64,000 nucleotides of DNA from Planctomycetaceae bacterium. Its GTDB lineage: Bacteria; Planctomycetota; Planctomycetia; Planctomycetales; Planctomycetaceae. The position numbers and the translations under genes were made by a program. Shown here piece by piece: positions 40,071 through 41,915 of the stretch. Each line of letters starts with the position of its first letter. Position 1 is the first letter of the stretch. The notes below the pieces were generated by a model. That model saw only the letters and a program-made list of their open reading frames with translations, searched no databases and had not been told where the DNA came from. Where the stretch lies: positions 210,629 through 274,628 of the forward strand of contig JAWKUA010000009.1 in assembly GCA_041398785.1 (NCBI GenBank). Reading direction: 5' to 3'.

Positions 40071-40142
40071 CGGGAAGTGTTGTCGATGGTTCGACAGCCG
40101 TTCTTATAAAGCGGTCCACGAGGTTCGATTCCGCGGCTTCCC
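40071..40142 (+). tRNA. tRNA-Ile(TAT)-like (anticodon UAU)
   Basis: Acceptor GGGAAGT/GCTTCCC. D TGTC/GACA. Anticodon CCGTT-CTTATAA-AGCGG. T CGAGG-TTCGATT-CCGCG (one A-G). Confidence 0.5.
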
Positions 40143-40167
40143 ATCTTGCATGAAGACAAACTCATCA

Positions 40168-40239
40168 ACCGTCGATGGCAGAGCGGCGATGCACCCGGCT
40201 CTTAACCGGACCAACGGGGGTTCGAATCCCTCTCGGCGG
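40168..40239 (+). tRNA. tRNA-Lys(CTT)
   Basis: Acceptor CCGTCGA/TCGGCGG. Anticodon CCCGG-CTCTTAA-CCGGA. T GGGGG-TTCGAAT-CCCTC. Confidence 0.6.
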
Positions 40240-40255
40240 ATTTGGAAATCAGTTT

Positions 40256-40326
40256 TGGCACTGTCGTCTAACGGCAAGATTCCTGTTTTGTACTCAGGAG
40301 ATGCGGGTTCAATTCCTGTCGGTGCC
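40256..40326 (+). tRNA. tRNA-Thr(TGT)
   Basis: Acceptor GGCACTG/CGGTGCC. D GTCT/AGAT. Anticodon CCTGT-TTTGTAC-TCAGG (31-39 T-T). T GCGGG-TTCAATT-CCTGT. Confidence 0.5.
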
Positions 40327-40357
40327 TCTTTGTGAATTCAACAGAGCGATGACATTT

Positions 40358-40428
40358 CGCAGCCGTCGTTCAATGGCAGGACGTCACGTTGCCAACGTGA
40401 GGACGCCGGTTCGATTCCGGTCGGCTGC
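40358..40428 (+). tRNA. tRNA-Gly(GCC)
   Basis: Acceptor GCAGCCG/CGGCTGC. D CGTT/GACG. Anticodon TCACG-TTGCCAA-CGTGA. T GCCGG-TTCGATT-CCGGT. Confidence 0.6.
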
Positions 40429-40448
40429 ATTTGGATGTTTTGAAATTC

Positions 40449-40529
40449 CGGCGTTGCTTCAGAGTGGGATCTGAACGCGGCTGTAACCCGCGTGCCATCC
40501 GGATAAGCGGTTCGATTCCGTACAGCGCC
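40449..40529 (+). tRNA. tRNA-Tyr(GTA), class II long variable arm
   Basis: Acceptor GGCGTTG/CAGCGCC. D TCAG/CTGA. Anticodon CGCGG-CTGTAAC-CCGCG. About 13-nt variable arm. T AGCGG-TTCGATT-CCGTA. Confidence 0.6.
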
Positions 40530-40534
40530 ACTTT

Positions 40535-40576
40535 GTAGATCTGAAATCTGAAATCTCAAATTTGAAATCTCAAATC
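40535..40576. repeat. heptanucleotide tandem repeat (AAATCTG/AAATCTC)n inside the tRNA array
   Basis: agatctgaaatctgaaatctcaaatttgaaatctcaaatcc. Same core family as the repeat at 23151. Confidence 0.8.
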
Positions 40577-40581
40577 CATCA

Positions 40582-40656
40582 TTCCGGTGGAGTCTGTGCT
40601 GGTACAGGCAGGCGGCTGTTAACCGTTGTGTCGCAGGTTCGATTCCTGCCGCCGGA
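40582..40656 (+). tRNA. tRNA-Asn(GTT)
   Basis: Acceptor TCCGGTG/CGCCGGA. Anticodon GGCGG-CTGTTAA-CCGTT. T GCAGG-TTCGATT-CCTGC. Confidence 0.6.
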
Positions 40657-40667
40657 GCTTTTAAGTC

Positions 40668-40748
40668 AGGAGGTCATCCGAATGGTGAGGAAGCGGTTTC
40701 GAAAACCGCCGCGGCTTGTCCGTTGAGGGTTCAAGTCCCTCGGCCTCC
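40668..40748 (+). tRNA. tRNA-Ser(CGA), class II
   Basis: Acceptor GGAGGTC/GGCCTCC. Anticodon GCGGT-TTCGAAA-ACCGC. Long variable arm CGCGGCTTGTCCGTT. T GAGGG-TTCAAGT-CCCTC. Confidence 0.65.
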
Positions 40749-40756
40749 GCTCGTTA

Positions 40757-40827
40757 CACGGACGAAGTGTTATGGCAGCACGCCGGTCTTCCACACCGGA
40801 AGCGGGAGTTCAACTCTCCCTGTCCGT
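40757..40827 (+). tRNA. tRNA-Gly(TCC)
   Basis: Acceptor ACGGACG/TGTCCGT. D GTGT/GCAC. Anticodon CCGGT-CTTCCAC-ACCGG. T GGGAG-TTCAACT-CTCCC. All stems regular. Confidence 0.75.
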
Positions 40828-40858
40828 ATTTGCCGCTGCTCGCGGCGCCAACCACACA

Positions 40859-40929
40859 TTGCCTCATGGTGTAACGGCAGCACCGCAGTCTCTGAAACTG
40901 TGTGATCAGGTTCGAATCCTGGTGAGGCA
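40859..40929 (+). tRNA. tRNA-Gln(CTG)
   Basis: Acceptor TGCCTCA/TGAGGCA. D GTGT/GCAC. Anticodon GCAGT-CTCTGAA-ACTGT. T TCAGG-TTCGAAT-CCTGG. Confidence 0.7.
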
Positions 40930-40980
40930 TCTTTGGAATGAGGAAGGTTCAAGGCAGAAGCGTCAACAGCGTCTGCTCTG

Positions 40981-41012
40981 TCTCTCAACCCTCAACCCTC
41001 AACTCTCAACTC
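40981..41012. repeat. heptanucleotide tandem repeat (CTCAACC / CTCAACT)n inside the tRNA array
   Basis: ctctcaaccctcaaccctcaactctcaactcttt, preceded by a short hairpin gcagaagcg-tcaaca-gcgtctgc. Confidence 0.8.
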
Positions 41013-41015
41013 TTT

Positions 41016-41100
41016 CGGAAGTCATCCGGCTGGATGAGGACGCAGTCTTGAAAACTGTTGCGTCGGCAACGGCGTTGTGGGTTCGAGTCCCACGGCTTCC
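41016..41100 (+). tRNA. tRNA-Ser(TGA), class II
   Basis: Acceptor GGAAGTC/GGCTTCC. Anticodon GCAGT-CTTGAAA-ACTGT. Variable arm GTTGC-GTCG-GCAAC. T GTGGG-TTCGAGT-CCCAC. Confidence 0.65.
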
Positions 41101-41108
41101 GCATGATC

Positions 41109-41181
41109 CGGTCCCGTAGCATAGCGGCAAATGCATCTGTCCTACACACAGACAATCGTTGGTTCGAGTCCAACCGGGATC
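41109..41181 (+). tRNA. tRNA-Val(TAC), C33
   Basis: Acceptor GGTCCCG/CGGGATC. D GCAT/ATGC. Anticodon TCTGT-CCTACAC-ACAGA (position 33 is C). T GTTGG-TTCGAGT-CCAAC. Confidence 0.6.
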
Positions 41182-41193
41182 AATCAAGACACG

Positions 41194-41266
41194 CAGCACC
41201 GTAGCCCAATGGCAGAGGCGGTCGTTTCAAACACGGCGCAGTGTGAGTTCGACTCTCACCGGTGCT
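41194..41266 (+). tRNA. tRNA with Leu anticodon CAA on a class I (short variable arm) scaffold
   Basis: Acceptor AGCACCG/CGGTGCT, A73. D-loop AATGGCAGA. Anticodon GTCGT-TTCAAAC-ACGGC. Variable arm only 5 nt. T GTGAG-TTCGACT-CTCAC. Confidence 0.5.
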
Positions 41267-41284
41267 ATGGAGACATTTAATAAA

Positions 41285-41359
41285 CGCCCTCGCAGAGCAG
41301 CCAGGAGTGCTCGCCACCCTGTCACGGTGGAGATCACCGGTTCAAATCCGGTCGGGGGT
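41285..41359 (+). tRNA. tRNA-Asp(GTC)
   Basis: Acceptor GCCCTCG/CGGGGGT. D GAGC/GCTC. Anticodon CCACC-CTGTCAC-GGTGG. T ACCGG-TTCAAAT-CCGGT. Confidence 0.7.
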
Positions 41360-41365
41360 GCTTTT

Positions 41366-41440
41366 TGGCACCGTAGCCCAATTTGGCAGAGGCACTCGGC
41401 TTAGACCCGAGACGTTGAGAGTTCGAATCTCTCCGGTGCT
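41366..41440 (+). tRNA. tRNA with Leu anticodon TAG on a class I scaffold (paralog of 41194 unit)
   Basis: Acceptor GGCACCG/CGGTGCT, A73. D-loop AATTTGGCAGA. Anticodon CTCGG-CTTAGAC-CCGAG. Short variable arm. T GAGAG-TTCGAAT-CTCTC. Confidence 0.5.
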
Positions 41441-41457
41441 ATTTGTGAGTTTATCCA

Positions 41458-41525
41458 TGCGGACGAGCCGGTGCTCAGTTGGCTTTCATAAGGCCGACCT
41501 GACGGGATCAACACCCGTGTCCGCG
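41458..41525 (+). pseudogene. tRNA-Met(CAT)-like unit with non-canonical T loop (ATCAACA) and shortened D loop
   Basis: Acceptor GCGGACG/TGTCCGC. D GAGC-CGGT-GCTC (4-nt loop). Anticodon TGGCT-TTCATAA-GGCCG. T ACGGG-ATCAACA-CCCGT. Confidence 0.35.
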
Positions 41526-41665
41526 ATTCTGTTCGTTCGAGACTTGTAGGCTGAGATTTGAGTGTTCCAACAAGGGGCCGCCGGAAGGTCGGACTTTTCC
41601 TTTGCAAGGAAGATGGTGGGGAGCGTTACCCCGTGGCTCCATTTGCGTTTGTGTAATTTGTGTTT

Positions 41666-41751
41666 CGGAGGATAGCCGGATACGGCTTGCCGGGCCGGTT
41701 TGCTAAACCGTGCGGCGTTCGCGTCGTGAGGGTTCGAATCCCTTGTCCTCC
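41666..41751 (+). tRNA. tRNA-Ser(GCT), class II
   Basis: Acceptor GGAGGAT/GTCCTCC. Anticodon CCGGT-TTGCTAA-ACCGT (27-43 C-T). Long variable arm GCGGCGTTCGCGTCGT. T GAGGG-TTCGAAT-CCCTT. Confidence 0.55.
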
Positions 41752-41753
41752 GC

Positions 41754-41829
41754 TGTGGCCGGGTCCGGTGCTGGTTTCCGGAGGCAGTTTGTGAAGCTGT
41801 TTGTCGGCGGTTCGATTCCGCTCGGTCAC
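41754..41829 (+). tRNA. tRNA-His(GTG), no genomically encoded G-1
   Basis: Acceptor GTGGCCG/CGGTCAC, C73. Anticodon GCAGT-TTGTGAA-GCTGT. T GGCGG-TTCGATT-CCGCT. The base at -1 is T. Begins 2 nt after the preceding Ser unit. Confidence 0.55.
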
Positions 41830-41842
41830 CCTCATTGTTTGT

Positions 41843-41915
41843 TGTCCTCGGAGTGTGCAGGATTTGCACGCGACTCTGCGAAGGTCGAAGACCAGGTTCG
41901 ATTCCTGGCGAGGAC
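41843..41915 (+). tRNA. tRNA-Arg(GCG)
   Basis: Acceptor GTCCTCG/CGAGGAC. D GTGT/GCAC. Anticodon CGACT-CTGCGAA-GGTCG. T CCAGG-TTCGATT-CCTGG. Confidence 0.65.

Follow-up and report, generated by a model that had tools for sequence, protein, structure and literature searches.

The 64,000-nt stretch of planctomycete DNA analysed here (the window) carries a long row of tRNA genes, several of which break the rules of their isotype. A preliminary description singled out two units with Leu anticodons on short-armed scaffolds, an Ile(UAU), an Arg(GCG), a Val with C33 and a His lacking an encoded G-1, which raises the question of what such genes are. ARAGORN and Infernal find all five oddities, including the short variable arm and A73 of both Leu units, and no alternative fold shifts any of the anticodons, although the coordinates first given for the units were about one base too low (corrected in Table 1). 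The point made earlier, that expression would make these units biochemically interesting, holds. On balance, the flagged units are probably genuine members of a long tRNA array that occupies one chromosomal locus across the class Planctomycetia and acts as a conditionally expressed decoding set.

Table 1. Features of the array locus, in positions of the window.
Feature	Position	Strand	Basis	Remarks
ECF-sigma-like promoter motif (putative)	38954..38981	+		GAAC, 16 nt, CGTCCTA
Leader ORF	39111..39230	+		39 codons; UGA stop (39228-39230) inside antiterminator strand
Antiterminator and intrinsic terminator	39228..39293	+	Terminator scan, folding	
Antiterminator	39228-39238 pairing with 39262-39272	+		
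Intrinsic terminator	39262-39270 / 39278-39286	+	Terminator scan	Followed by T7
tRNA array	39314..41917	+	ARAGORN, Infernal/Rfam, synteny	23 ARAGORN genes: Phe, Glu, Arg-UCG, Trp, Ile-GAU, Lys-UUU, Ile-UAU, Lys-CUU, Thr, Gly, Tyr, Asn, Ser, Gly, Gln, Ser, Val, Leu-CAA, Asp, Leu-UAG, Ser, His, Arg-GCG
Ile(UAU)-anticodon unit	40072..40143	+		Divergent scaffold; G7-G66 and T-stem mismatches
tRNA-Val(UAC) with C33	41110..41182	+		C33 is base 41142
Short-variable-arm (class I) tRNA-Leu(CAA)	41195..41267	+		73 nt; 5-nt variable loop; A73
Short-variable-arm (class I) tRNA-Leu(UAG)	41367..41441	+		5-nt variable loop; G1-U72; A73
CAU-anticodon tRNA	41458..41526	+	BLAST, by-eye homology to Met(cat) units of L003 and L005	Missed by ARAGORN
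tRNA-His(GUG), no encoded G-1	41755..41830	+		G1-C72; C73 (41830); T at -1 (41754)
tRNA-Arg(GCG)	41844..41916	+		Atypical core (G at position 8)
X element, tRNA-like RNA	42180..42255	+	ARAGORN: tRNA-Ser(GCU), 76 nt	Core 42187-42245
SPFH/Band 7 protein gene	42744..43850	+		Conserved downstream anchor of the array locus

ARAGORN predicts 24 co-oriented tRNA-like genes at 39314-42255, the last being the X element, and the window holds 23-25 tRNA genes within 2.6-2.9 kb, every one on the plus strand; in number, density and co-orientation it is thus an L-array as defined in passages of PMC4758250 (20 or more tRNA genes in one orientation, at a density of 2 or more per kb). The CAU unit belongs to an atypical family of 69-71 nt with a reduced D arm and a non-canonical T loop. 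A co-oriented array upstream of the SPFH gene recurs in dozens of Planctomycetia genomes, and among 80 loci collected via this gene about 30 have arrays of 11-40 tRNAs with the order kept, some of them on chromosome-scale contigs. Arrays syntenic with that of the window include those of L003, L005, L027, L031, L033 and others, and reach 40 tRNAs; the flagged units have orthologues in other genomes that match them in anticodon and in place within the array order. Recurring across genomes, the oddities are family traits rather than private accidents. Array content is highly variable, with 0-3 members only in many genomes, which suggests dispensability and counts against a working decoding set; in the window itself, the Cys(GCA) that stands between Arg(GCG) and X in other arrays is gone.

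Infernal returned full-length Rfam tRNA matches in the same register as ARAGORN for Leu(CAA) (49.3 bits), Leu(UAG) (57.0 bits), Val (61.5 bits) and Arg(GCG) (31.0 bits); the Ile(UAU), His and Trp (19.9 bits) of the window lie under the Rfam tRNA gathering score. The window members span 20-63 bits, and in related loci non-array tRNAs score 68-74 bits versus 32-64 for array members (a single one reaches 69.6), a gap that fits a separate auxiliary set. The low scores themselves count against the decoding-set reading. Across all array families and across orders of Planctomycetia, 97.7% of 10,965 helix cells are paired and compensatory changes are abundant, so that the helices are upheld by compensatory substitutions across orthologues, as in functional tRNA genes rather than pseudogenes. 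The discriminators also match the isotype, with A73 in 65 of 67 distinct array Leu tRNAs, C73 in 19 of 19 His, G73 in Ser, Asp and Trp, and U73 in Cys and Gly; they track the anticodons in every family, which is expected only if charging matches decoding.

The two Leu units were initially taken for anticodon-switched copies of another isoacceptor, on the premise that all bacterial tRNA-Leu are class II. That premise is wrong, because Streptomyces coelicolor has a type I tRNA-Leu(CAA) that is charged by its own LeuRS (Fan et al., 2019, PMC6614811), and it is also countered by tRNA-Leu genes of 73-76 nt in GenBank actinophage records. Neither unit of the window (Leu(UAG) is 75 nt when read with a 7-bp acceptor) has the variable arm stem-loop of more than 10 nt that marks class II tRNA-Leu, the variable loop of the family being 4-8 nt, and both have the short variable loop of at least 5 nt, the U8-A14 and the G18G19 of type I tRNA-Leu. 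Ser and Tyr members of the arrays, unlike short-arm Leu, retain a long variable arm. Among 52 short-arm Leu sequences, U8, A14 and G18 are invariant, 98.1% of helix cells hold a pair, and double (compensatory) changes are seen in 18 of the 20 pairs; this pairing was reached by none of 500 shuffles, and slid controls gave 32-46%. The D arm of the family is Leu-type (3-bp stem, U8, A14, G18G19), and the closest relatives of both window units are other short-arm Leu tRNAs. In L070 and L071, moreover, the short-arm Leu(CAA) has acceptor and T arms in common with the class II Leu(CAG) of the arrays. Because of A73 and the Leu-type D arm, the short-arm units are assigned to a Leu-type scaffold family from which the long variable arm has been lost, and the proposed anticodon switch is not borne out for them.

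The near-universal A73 fits LeuRS identity. The S. coelicolor tRNA, which is like the planctomycete units by description (a short variable loop), coexists with class II tRNA-Leu and a single LeuRS, and its charging depends on U8-A14 and needs a variable loop of at least 5 nt (PMC6614811). It is not charged by the LeuRS of E. coli, and hence charging of short-arm Leu by a planctomycete LeuRS is not guaranteed (PMC6614811). The planctomycete design differs in that it lies inside an array, spans 4-6 anticodons (CAA, UAA, UAG, GAG, sometimes CAG or AAG) and has a charging that is putative. Short-arm Leu tRNAs are also found in the tRNA sets of actinobacteriophages (Mycobacterium phage Wildcat, LeBron-like phages and Gordonia phage Boopy, which also has Ile(AUA)). 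These phage tRNAs of 73-76 nt have the same 3-bp D stem, AAA..GGCAAAG D loop, 6-bp anticodon stem, GUUU variable loop and A73, and are 76-86% identical to the planctomycete consensus, but the sets are phage-borne and have another gene order. Short-arm Leu genes on uncultured viral contigs (L081, L090, L092) encode CCA.

The Arg(GCG), C33 and absent G-1 are likewise recurrent across genomes and are not one-off mutations. Arg(GCG) has 33 orthologues of near-identical sequence and is retained even in reduced loci. The anticodon loop of the window Val(UAC) reads C32-C33-UAC-A-C, and 8 of the 18 Val(UAC) copies in the arrays have C33, as do 68 of 693 array tRNAs overall. The window His lacks the encoded G-1 opposite C73 that is typical of bacterial tRNA-His, and the T at its -1 position lies two bases past the discriminator (G73, 41752) of Ser(GCU); G-1 is also absent in L001, L003, L042, L045, L046, L070 and L071, and is encoded in 13 array His genes (L005, L010, L012, L016, L019, L027, L031, L033, L047, L048, L051, L061, L072). 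By established identity rules, a tRNA-His without G-1 but with C73 should be a poor substrate for HisRS, which counts against the decoding-set reading. Wang and co-workers reportedly found in 2007 that some Alphaproteobacteria have tRNA-His without G-1, together with a discriminator changed to A73 and an adapted HisRS; the window His resembles these in having no encoded G-1 but keeps C73, as all array His do, and most array orthologues encode G-1. The window Ile(UAU) is mismatched in its acceptor and T stems and does not resemble its orthologues, so that scaffold replacement or decay is a live possibility. Its presence agrees with the preliminary description, and such units have been published before from planctomycete tRNA clusters (PMC4807772). 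The Ile(UAU), Trp and G-1-less His copies of the window may be weak or decaying members.

The X element was tried as the tRNA-Ser that ARAGORN reports, and this assignment was rejected: there is no 7-bp acceptor stem (the outer acceptor pairs are at chance level), no long variable arm (the loop has 5 nt) and no conserved anticodon, the anticodon loop being hypervariable with 25 different triplets among 54 orthologues. Rfam matches to X in other loci span model positions 4-67 only. X clearly does not decode.

What precedes the array is a conserved leader. Of 20 array leaders, 17 have the spaced motif GAAC-N16/17-C(G/A)TC, placed 223-374 nt before the T-run of the terminator, against a background of 1 per 5.6 kb per strand, and from this we infer that it is a promoter. 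In 14 of 18 leaders an ATG-initiated ORF of 26-45 codons runs to one and the same conserved TGA, which lies 28-37 nt ahead of the terminator; most of these ORFs end Leu-Arg(CGC)-Leu(UUG)-UGA. These features hint that the ORF may be translated; the four leaders without such an ORF, and the window leader, which ends Asp-Phe-UGA, count against this. Predicted folding energies are -27.3 kcal/mol (z -3.5) for the full leader and -19.6 kcal/mol (z -3.4) for a transcript ending before the 3' arm of the terminator. The same terminator/antiterminator switch is found in 17 of 19 leaders, with 90.5% of antiterminator cells and 98.6% of terminator cells paired in the alignment, and column 57, shared by both helices, covaries with both partners. 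Counting against the switch, the antiterminator helix is highly conserved and shows true double-sided covariation in two pairs only.

The leader has the architecture of a leader-peptide attenuator, in that a short ORF is followed by an intrinsic terminator and by an antiterminator that excludes the latter and overlaps the ORF end. A T-box riboswitch was rejected, as no Rfam model, the T-box leader with its specifier loop and T-box bulge included, matched positions 39000-39313 even at E<=10, save a chance match on the minus strand. Ribosome-mediated attenuators include the trp and his leader peptides and the antibiotic-sensing leaders of resistance genes. As in attenuators of the trp/his type, the short ORF lies before an intrinsic terminator and the alternative helix shares a terminator strand and overlaps the ORF end, but the array leader regulates tRNAs, has its stop codon inside the antiterminator strand and shows no evident run of regulatory codons in its ORF, and the logic proposed for it is that of a general sensor of translation pace. 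The combination of a conserved putative ECF-type promoter, a short leader ORF and a terminator/antiterminator switch ahead of the array is apparently new, and its sequence suggests that the array would be induced when translation lags.

Two kinds of tRNA gene cluster described previously bear on the locus. Like the trn operon of Anabaena PCC 7120 and other L-arrays (PMC8421152, PMC4758250), the window has more than 20 co-oriented, dense, putatively supernumerary tRNA genes, and Planctomycetes are listed among the phyla with L-arrays. The Anabaena L-array is silent until translation is impaired and is induced by translational stress (PMC8421152). In contrast to L-arrays generally, which are sporadically scattered, the planctomycete array is at one syntenic chromosomal locus class-wide, and instead of the promoter-overlapping repressor repeats proposed for Anabaena its putative control is the leader ORF and switch with an ECF-type promoter. 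The other comparison is with the "degenerate tRNA gene clusters" of planctomycetes (Kim et al., 2016, PMC4807772), which share with the window the phylum, covariance scores that are low relative to other tRNAs and an Ile(UAU) confined to the cluster; the two are almost certainly the same object. There the members are described as partially degraded, horizontally acquired and dispensable, and Table S3 gives 5 Leu genes in planctomycetes without big clusters versus 8-12 in those with them, while the helices, discriminators and locus are found here to be conserved. The portions of its text and supplement at hand contain no mention of the short-arm Leu, Arg(GCG), C33, leader switch or X element. 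By its sequence features, then, the array appears to be of the L-array or degenerate-cluster kind, with tRNA designs common to phage tRNA sets.

A relic reading, in which the units are pseudogenes in the course of being lost from a dispensable cluster acquired by horizontal transfer (as the planctomycete clusters were first described), is unlikely, even though the low scores (noted also in the cluster sections of PMC4807772), the mismatched Ile(UAU) and weak Trp of the window, the missing Cys(GCA) and the shrunken or absent arrays of many genomes all point that way. Decay would preserve neither paired helices with compensatory changes across orders, nor isotype-matching discriminators, nor a conserved promoter/leader/terminator module, and this weakens the relic reading. 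The anticodon switch of the preliminary description, by which the Leu units and perhaps others would be mis-acylated, orthogonal or non-functional, has very little probability: the nearest relatives of both units are all Leu, the D arm with its invariant U8 and A14 and the near-universal A73 are those of Leu, the L070/L071 scaffold is partly that of a class II Leu, and in each family the discriminator goes with the anticodon. Shifts of anticodon do seem to occur inside arrays, as scaffolds unlike those of same-anticodon orthologues are found in the window, where Lys(CUU) is closest to Thr(UGU) units of L042 and L045, Gln(CUG) is closest to Arg(UCU), and Ile(UAU) is close to nothing.

A mainly non-decoding role of the array RNAs, as toxin decoys or sponges, donors for aminoacyl-tRNA-dependent transferases or regulatory RNAs, would explain the atypical cores (G8 in Arg(GCG), the T loops of the CAU family, C33 in 10% of members) and the adjacent, non-decoding X, and non-canonical roles have been left open for the Anabaena operonic tRNAs (PMC8421152). 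It is nevertheless unlikely, for a near-complete anticodon set with isotype-matching identity elements is what decoding needs and goes beyond what decoys need, and in the related phage sets the members carry the annotation of tRNA genes. Such phage tRNAs decode as a rule. A prophage or other mobile element that carries the array as cargo, for its own use and not the cell's, is highly improbable: X, the SPFH gene and the gene order are the same across orders of Planctomycetia on Mb-scale chromosomal contigs, the array is flanked in the window by ordinary chromosomal genes (purH, Fae, a methyltransferase, giant adhesins), none of the ORFs checked is a phage or integrase gene, and the Arg(GCG) core has no match in the viral collection. 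What speaks for cargo is the short-arm Leu design common to actinophages and IMG/VR viral contigs, an IMG/VR contig with a planctomycete-type array and a serine recombinase 7 kb off, and the upstream flank of the array, which differs from genome to genome.

If the array is indeed a conditionally expressed decoding set, it would be transcribed as a single unit from the ECF-type promoter, cut by RNase P and 3' nucleases and supplied with CCA, and its tRNAs would be charged by the normal synthetases, with LeuRS acting on short-arm Leu as in Streptomyces. A ribosome at the leader UGA would cover the antiterminator strand of 12-13 nt, which would let the terminator fold and keep the array silent; should leader translation fall behind RNA polymerase, upon tRNA depletion or ribosome inhibition, the antiterminator would form and allow read-through. 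With Arg(GCG) and Ile(UAU) the set would have no need of the anticodon-editing enzymes TadA and TilS, and loop variants, C33 among them, may weaken the action of anticodon nucleases, a role proposed for phage tRNAs. A more specific and tentative proposal, itself doubtful, is that of a phage-like backup decoding set at a fixed locus, switched on via the ECF-type promoter and the leader-ORF attenuator once the lead ribosome lags RNA polymerase, free of TadA and TilS, with C33 loops and Leu scaffolds that evade tRNA-targeting nucleases and with X, acceptor-less and free in its anticodon, serving either to signal processing or to decoy nucleases. Translational capacity would then be sensed directly, with tRNAs as the output, and the attenuator, if the proposal is true, would also show tight transcription-translation coupling in a phylum where such coupling has been questioned.

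The odd units flagged in the preliminary description of this DNA are, from sequence comparison, best read as conserved parts of a tRNA array of a known kind, and the short-arm design of its leucine tRNAs is shared with phages and has a biochemical precedent. In the window ARAGORN finds 24 co-oriented tRNA-like genes at 39314-42255, and all of the flagged anticodons and features are present: two leucine anticodons on scaffolds with short variable loops, Ile(UAU), Arg(GCG), a tRNA-Val with C33 and a tRNA-His without an encoded G-1. The observations are thus borne out, with the units lying about one base higher than first given, while their interpretation stands only in part. 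Infernal returns full-length Rfam tRNA matches in the ARAGORN register for Leu(CAA), Leu(UAG), Val and Arg(GCG), and the Ile(UAU), His and Trp units of the window score under the Rfam tRNA threshold. Re-folding leaves the anticodons unchanged and, since ARAGORN and Infernal concur on all of those flagged, refutation of the units by a shifted fold fails. At E<=10, the interval 39000-42700 gives tRNA-clan matches and chance hits only in Rfam.

Flagged tRNA genes of the array and the gene that follows it
Feature	Position	Strand	Support or remark
Ile(UAU)	40072-40143	+	ARAGORN
Val(UAC), C at position 33 (base 41142)	41110-41182	+	ARAGORN; Infernal/Rfam, 61.5 bits
Leu(CAA), 73 nt, variable loop 5 nt, A73	41195-41267	+	ARAGORN; Infernal/Rfam, 49.3 bits
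Leu(UAG), 75 nt, variable loop 5 nt, A73	41367-41441	+	ARAGORN; Infernal/Rfam, 57.0 bits
His(GUG), C73, T at -1, 2 bases past the Ser(GCU) discriminator	41755-41830	+	ARAGORN
Arg(GCG)	41844-41916	+	ARAGORN; Infernal/Rfam, 31.0 bits
SPFH/Band 7 gene	42744-43850	+	directly follows the array

Some further tRNA-like sequences and repeats were noted in the window. The 225-nt gap past Leu(UAG) holds a 69-nt unit with a CAU anticodon (41458-41526), missed by both ARAGORN and Rfam and with homologues in other arrays, an atypical "Met(cat)" family of 69-71 nt in which the D arm is reduced and the T loop non-canonical (AUCAACA in the window unit); it is a candidate Met, initiator or Ile2 tRNA. A possible degenerate tRNA-like sequence seen by eye at 41573-41640, with a UUGCAA loop (GCA, a Cys anticodon) and 7-bp acceptor-like pairing, is called by no tRNA tool and has a match in only one other locus, L001. 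The window is without a Cys(GCA) gene; other arrays keep one between Arg(GCG) and the tRNA-like element, here termed X, that ends the array. Two inter-tRNA spacers contain heptamer tandem repeats (ATCTGAA x5.4 at 40539-40576 and CTCTCAA x4.6 at 40982-41013). Outside the array, a 92-nt ARAGORN call of tRNA-Phe on the minus strand (34893-34984) overlaps an enolase-superfamily ORF (33488-34963) at its 5′ end, and is almost certainly a false positive because it has no Rfam match.

The window is ordinary planctomycete chromosome, with a GC content of 0.56-0.62 and genes that include purH and those for a formaldehyde-activating enzyme (Fae), an ATP-grasp enzyme, a methyltransferase, a 3347-aa Ig/cadherin-repeat protein and an RHS protein. 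A search with the SPFH protein against one genome per species gave 80 loci (numbered with L below, as are several IMG/VR contigs), nearly all labelled Planctomycetota (Planctomycetaceae, Pirellulaceae, Pirellulales and others); two of them, MAG records, are labelled Candidatus Hydrogenedentota and Candidatus Entotheonella. Immediately 5′ of the SPFH gene, about 30 of the 80 have an array of 11-40 co-oriented tRNAs, recognisably in the common order Phe-Glu-(Pro)-Ile-Lys-Ile(UAU)-Lys-Thr-Gly ... Val-Leu-Asp-Leu ... Ser-Arg-His ... Trp-Thr-Arg-Arg-Arg(GCG)-Cys, and several of these sit on contigs of 0.4-2.6 Mb. Complete genomes with the array include OZ244208.1. Conservation does not extend to the upstream flank, where no protein is common to at least three loci, and the Fae, methyltransferase and STAS genes of the window are not upstream in other loci. 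Because the common order lies 5′ of the SPFH gene, in several cases on long contigs, the array is an old, chromosomally anchored feature that has expanded and contracted in separate lineages.

Parts of this picture have precedents. For Planctomycetes, Kim et al. (PMC4807772) describe groups of 2-28 tRNAs with low scores as "degenerate tRNA gene clusters", presume them to be horizontally acquired and dispensable, and give Ile(UAU) as confined to them; the clusters are listed there for P1-P3, all Rhodopirellula and other Planctomycetes. Planctomycetes are also one of the phyla with long "L-arrays" (Santamaria-Gomez et al., PMC8421152), and a type I tRNA-Leu(CAA), with a short variable loop, is charged in S. 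coelicolor by its own LeuRS and not by that of E. coli (Fan et al., PMC6614811). From these three reports, this kind of object, Ile(UAU) and bacterial short-arm tRNA-Leu are all already known. A literature search whose incomplete coverage leaves novelty unproven gave nothing specific on short-arm Leu in phage or array tRNAs or on leader attenuation of tRNA arrays, and no description of the regulatory architecture at the array locus was found.

The preliminary description held that all bacterial tRNA-Leu are class II, having a long variable arm, and found that the two Leu units look like anticodon-switched copies of another isoacceptor. The first of these is contradicted by the S. coelicolor tRNA (PMC6614811), and the second is not supported by comparison of scaffolds. 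The arrays contain 54 Leu-anticodon tRNAs of 72-80 nt, with the anticodons CAA, UAA, UAG, GAG and sometimes CAG or AAG; array Leu(CAG) is usually class II (81-85 nt). In an alignment of 52 short-arm sequences U8, A14 and G18 are invariant, A73 is present in at least 90%, and 98.1% of 1040 cloverleaf cells are paired, with double-sided changes in 18 of 20 pairs, a level of pairing reached by 0 of 500 shuffles, slid controls giving 32-46%. The D arm is of the Leu type, with a 3-bp stem and an 11-nt loop containing A14, A15 and G18G19. Nearest to Leu(CAA) and Leu(UAG) of the window are other short-arm Leu tRNAs, at scaffold scores of 0.6-0.9, with the next isotype at 0.35-0.51. The short-arm Leu(CAA) of loci L070 and L071 and the Leu(CAG) of class II found in other arrays have a common acceptor stem (GGCCGAG/CUUGGCC) and a common T arm (GGGAG/CUCCC), and the absent arm is the sole real difference between them. 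The window units are therefore Leu scaffolds that have lost the arm, and not switched copies. The array Ser and Tyr tRNAs retain long arms. Bacterial SerRS and TyrRS use the arm while E. coli-type LeuRS identity lies in A73, A14 and the tertiary core (PMC6614811), a rule that fits retention of the arm by Ser and Tyr and its loss by Leu.

The short-arm design extends to viruses. The D-arm pattern GGTACGCAAANNGGNAAAGCG was found in 15 IMG/VR contigs, and the contigs L081, L087, L090, L092 and L094 (GC 0.38-0.52) contain tRNA clusters with 75-80-nt Leu genes of this design. By BLAST against cultured phages, the planctomycete Leu consensus matched 43 records at 60-95% identity, all of them actinophages (33 Mycobacterium, 7 Gordonia, 2 Microbacterium and 1 Rhodococcus) and, among the matches listed, nearly all under features annotated as tRNA-Leu. 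Wildcat has two short-arm Leu genes (74 and 73 nt), and Gordonia phage Boopy has three together with an Ile(AUA) tRNA. The Arg(GCG) core gave 0 matches in the viral scan. A 94-kb contig filed as viral, L084 (IMGVR_UViG_3300007072_000340), carries at 22-2781 an array of planctomycete type with its genes in the same order and, about 7 kb from it, a serine recombinase gene (9713-10456); a prophage, a misfiled chromosome fragment and a mobile array are the candidates.

Array tRNAs score 32-64 bits, with one at 69.6, and non-array tRNAs of the same loci score 68-74, as would be expected of an auxiliary set that is separate and divergent. The views that the units are pseudogenes, or that they are mis-acylated, both meet their main counter-argument in properties of the array as a whole. 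When 40 anticodon families are taken together, their acceptor, anticodon and T stems comprise 10,965 cells, of which 97.7% are paired, with double changes in 7-16 of 17 pairs per family, and the discriminators match the isotypes, being A in Ala, Ile, Leu, Lys, Met, Phe, Pro, Tyr and Val, G in Ser, Asp, Asn and Trp, U in Cys, Gly and Thr, and C in His. Such pairing with isotype-matched discriminators looks like the mark of selection for correct charging.

Arg(GCG) is the best-conserved array member and no defect: its 33 orthologues are nearly the same in sequence, pairing is 98.9%, 29 of 31 distinct copies have G at position 8, and it persists, usually with Cys(GCA), in arrays shrunk to 2-4 genes. 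Position 8 of tRNA is normally U; it is G or A in most array Arg(GCG), Arg(UCG), Cys, Lys(CUU), Asn and Met(CAU) tRNAs (L003-L079, where the register may be off if the acceptor-to-D spacer is 3 nt), which points to an altered tertiary core. Arg tRNAs with GCG, UCG and CCG would cover the CGN codons without TadA A34-to-I editing, Ile(UAU) would read AUA without TilS lysidine, and fewer host anticodon-editing steps would suit phage-derived or emergency tRNAs. The Ile(UAU) orthologues are mostly canonical (about 55 bits in L003), and the window copy is unlike them, with a G7-G66 mismatch, a T-stem mismatch and a best same-anticodon score of 0.17. Between 39991 and 40931 the Lys-UUU, Ile-UAU, Lys-CUU, Thr-UGU, Gly-GCC, Tyr, Gly-UCC and Gln-CUG scaffolds are unlike their same-anticodon orthologues, that of Lys(CUU) being nearest the Thr(UGU) units of L042 and L045, and this suggests that scaffold replacement or anticodon shifts occur within arrays, the Leu units being exceptions.

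Of the His genes in the arrays, 13 have G at -1; T takes this place in the window and in L001, L003, L042, L045, L046, L070 and L071; in the window and the first six of these loci the gene starts 1-2 nt past the ARAGORN 3′ end of the preceding tRNA. C73 is present in all, and the acceptor stem shows the compensatory series G4-U69, G4-C69 and A4-U69. By the usual HisRS identity rules a tRNA-His without G-1 is a poor substrate unless G-1 is added, and this should hold for the variant with T at -1. C33, found in 68 of 693 array tRNAs (all 16 Leu(GAG), 8 of 18 Val(UAC), 7 of 14 Glu(CUC) and several Thr, Ala and Val(GAC)), far exceeds the near-zero rate of ordinary bacterial tRNAs. It recalls the proposal that phage tRNAs blunt the anticodon nucleases of the host through changes in their anticodon loops (PMC10264068).

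The first tRNA has a strong intrinsic terminator 21 nt 5′ of it, at 39262-39293, and in about 20 genomes the same element stands before the array. An ATG-initiated leader ORF of 26-45 codons is found in 14 of 18 leaders, the other four being without one, and its TGA sits within the conserved motif cttGTGACgCtcGGCC, 28-37 nt 5′ of the terminator. Most of these ORFs end Leu-Arg(CGC)-Leu(UUG)-UGA; the putative ORF of the window (39111-39230, 39 codons) ends Asp-Phe-UGA instead. Comparison of codon positions placed 12 of 22 differences at third positions in one pair of leaders and was flat in other pairs. The stop-codon motif is complementary to the 5′ arm of the terminator, and in transcripts folded to the terminator loop only, the two pair in 17 of 19 leaders, with antiterminator duplex energies of -13 to -25 kcal/mol and z of about -3 to -5 relative to shuffles. 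For the window, folding gives -27.3 kcal/mol (z -3.5) for the terminator and -19.6 (z -3.4) for the truncated antiterminator. In a 16-sequence leader alignment 90.5% of antiterminator and 98.6% of terminator cells are paired (slid controls 20-45%), and the high conservation of the element leaves little room for covariation; column 57, the sole variable base of the shared strand, covaries with each of its two partners (AU/GU/GC/UA in the antiterminator and UA/CG/AU in the terminator). Further 5′, at a consistent distance, 17 of 20 leaders have GAAC-N16/17-C(G/A)TC (38954-38981 in the window; background one per 5.6 kb), which we take to be an ECF-sigma promoter signature. A sigma-70 promoter scan upstream of the array found none, nor did Rfam at E<=10 find a T-box or riboswitch in the leader. 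The leader module of promoter motif, ORF and terminator/antiterminator is conserved in about 20 genomes, and in L018 a second copy of it lies inside the array, 5′ of Arg(GCG) (7527-7671).

These features suggest leader-ORF attenuation as the switch of the array. The antiterminator strand begins at the UGA and is 12-13 nt long, approximately the footprint of a ribosome at a stop codon. A lead ribosome that keeps up with RNA polymerase would mask this strand, so that the terminator forms and the array is off; when starvation, ribosome inhibitors, or the depletion or cleavage of tRNA make translation lag, the antiterminator would form first and allow read-through into the array. The physiological logic would be that of the Anabaena L-array, which translational stress induces >100-fold, but the device is different, a putative repressor acting there (PMC8421152).

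The last "tRNA" of the array, the X element (42180-42255; core 42187-42245), is a conserved tRNA-like sequence that ARAGORN calls as a 76-nt Ser-GCU gene, and sits 390-700 nt upstream of the SPFH gene. Copies were located with an explicit parser in 62 of 81 loci including the window (for example L003 9469-9544 and L014 9446-9522), also where the array is absent. Pairing in the D, anticodon and T stems is almost complete across 60 distinct copies (56-60 of 60 at each position), and compensatory changes accompany it; the four outermost acceptor pairs do no better than chance (37-60%), and the "anticodon" takes 25 values in 54 seven-nt loops, with 6- and 8-nt loops occurring too. With acceptor pairs at chance and so variable an "anticodon", the element cannot decode. 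Rfam families besides tRNA give no match to it; it could serve as a processing signal or a decoy, or be the relic of an attachment site.

If these readings are correct, the planctomycete "degenerate" clusters would become an auxiliary set of tRNAs that is conserved, under selection and probably regulated, tied by sequence to the tRNA sets of phages. Short-arm tRNA-Leu would be a widespread design, found in planctomycete arrays as well as in actinophages and uncultured viruses, and no mere Streptomyces curiosity, and its spread would bear on the recognition of tRNA by LeuRS and on orthogonal tRNA design. To our knowledge the differential regulation of tRNA genes is largely unknown, and the leader would provide a concrete and testable mechanism by which a bacterium could switch on spare tRNAs when translation falters.
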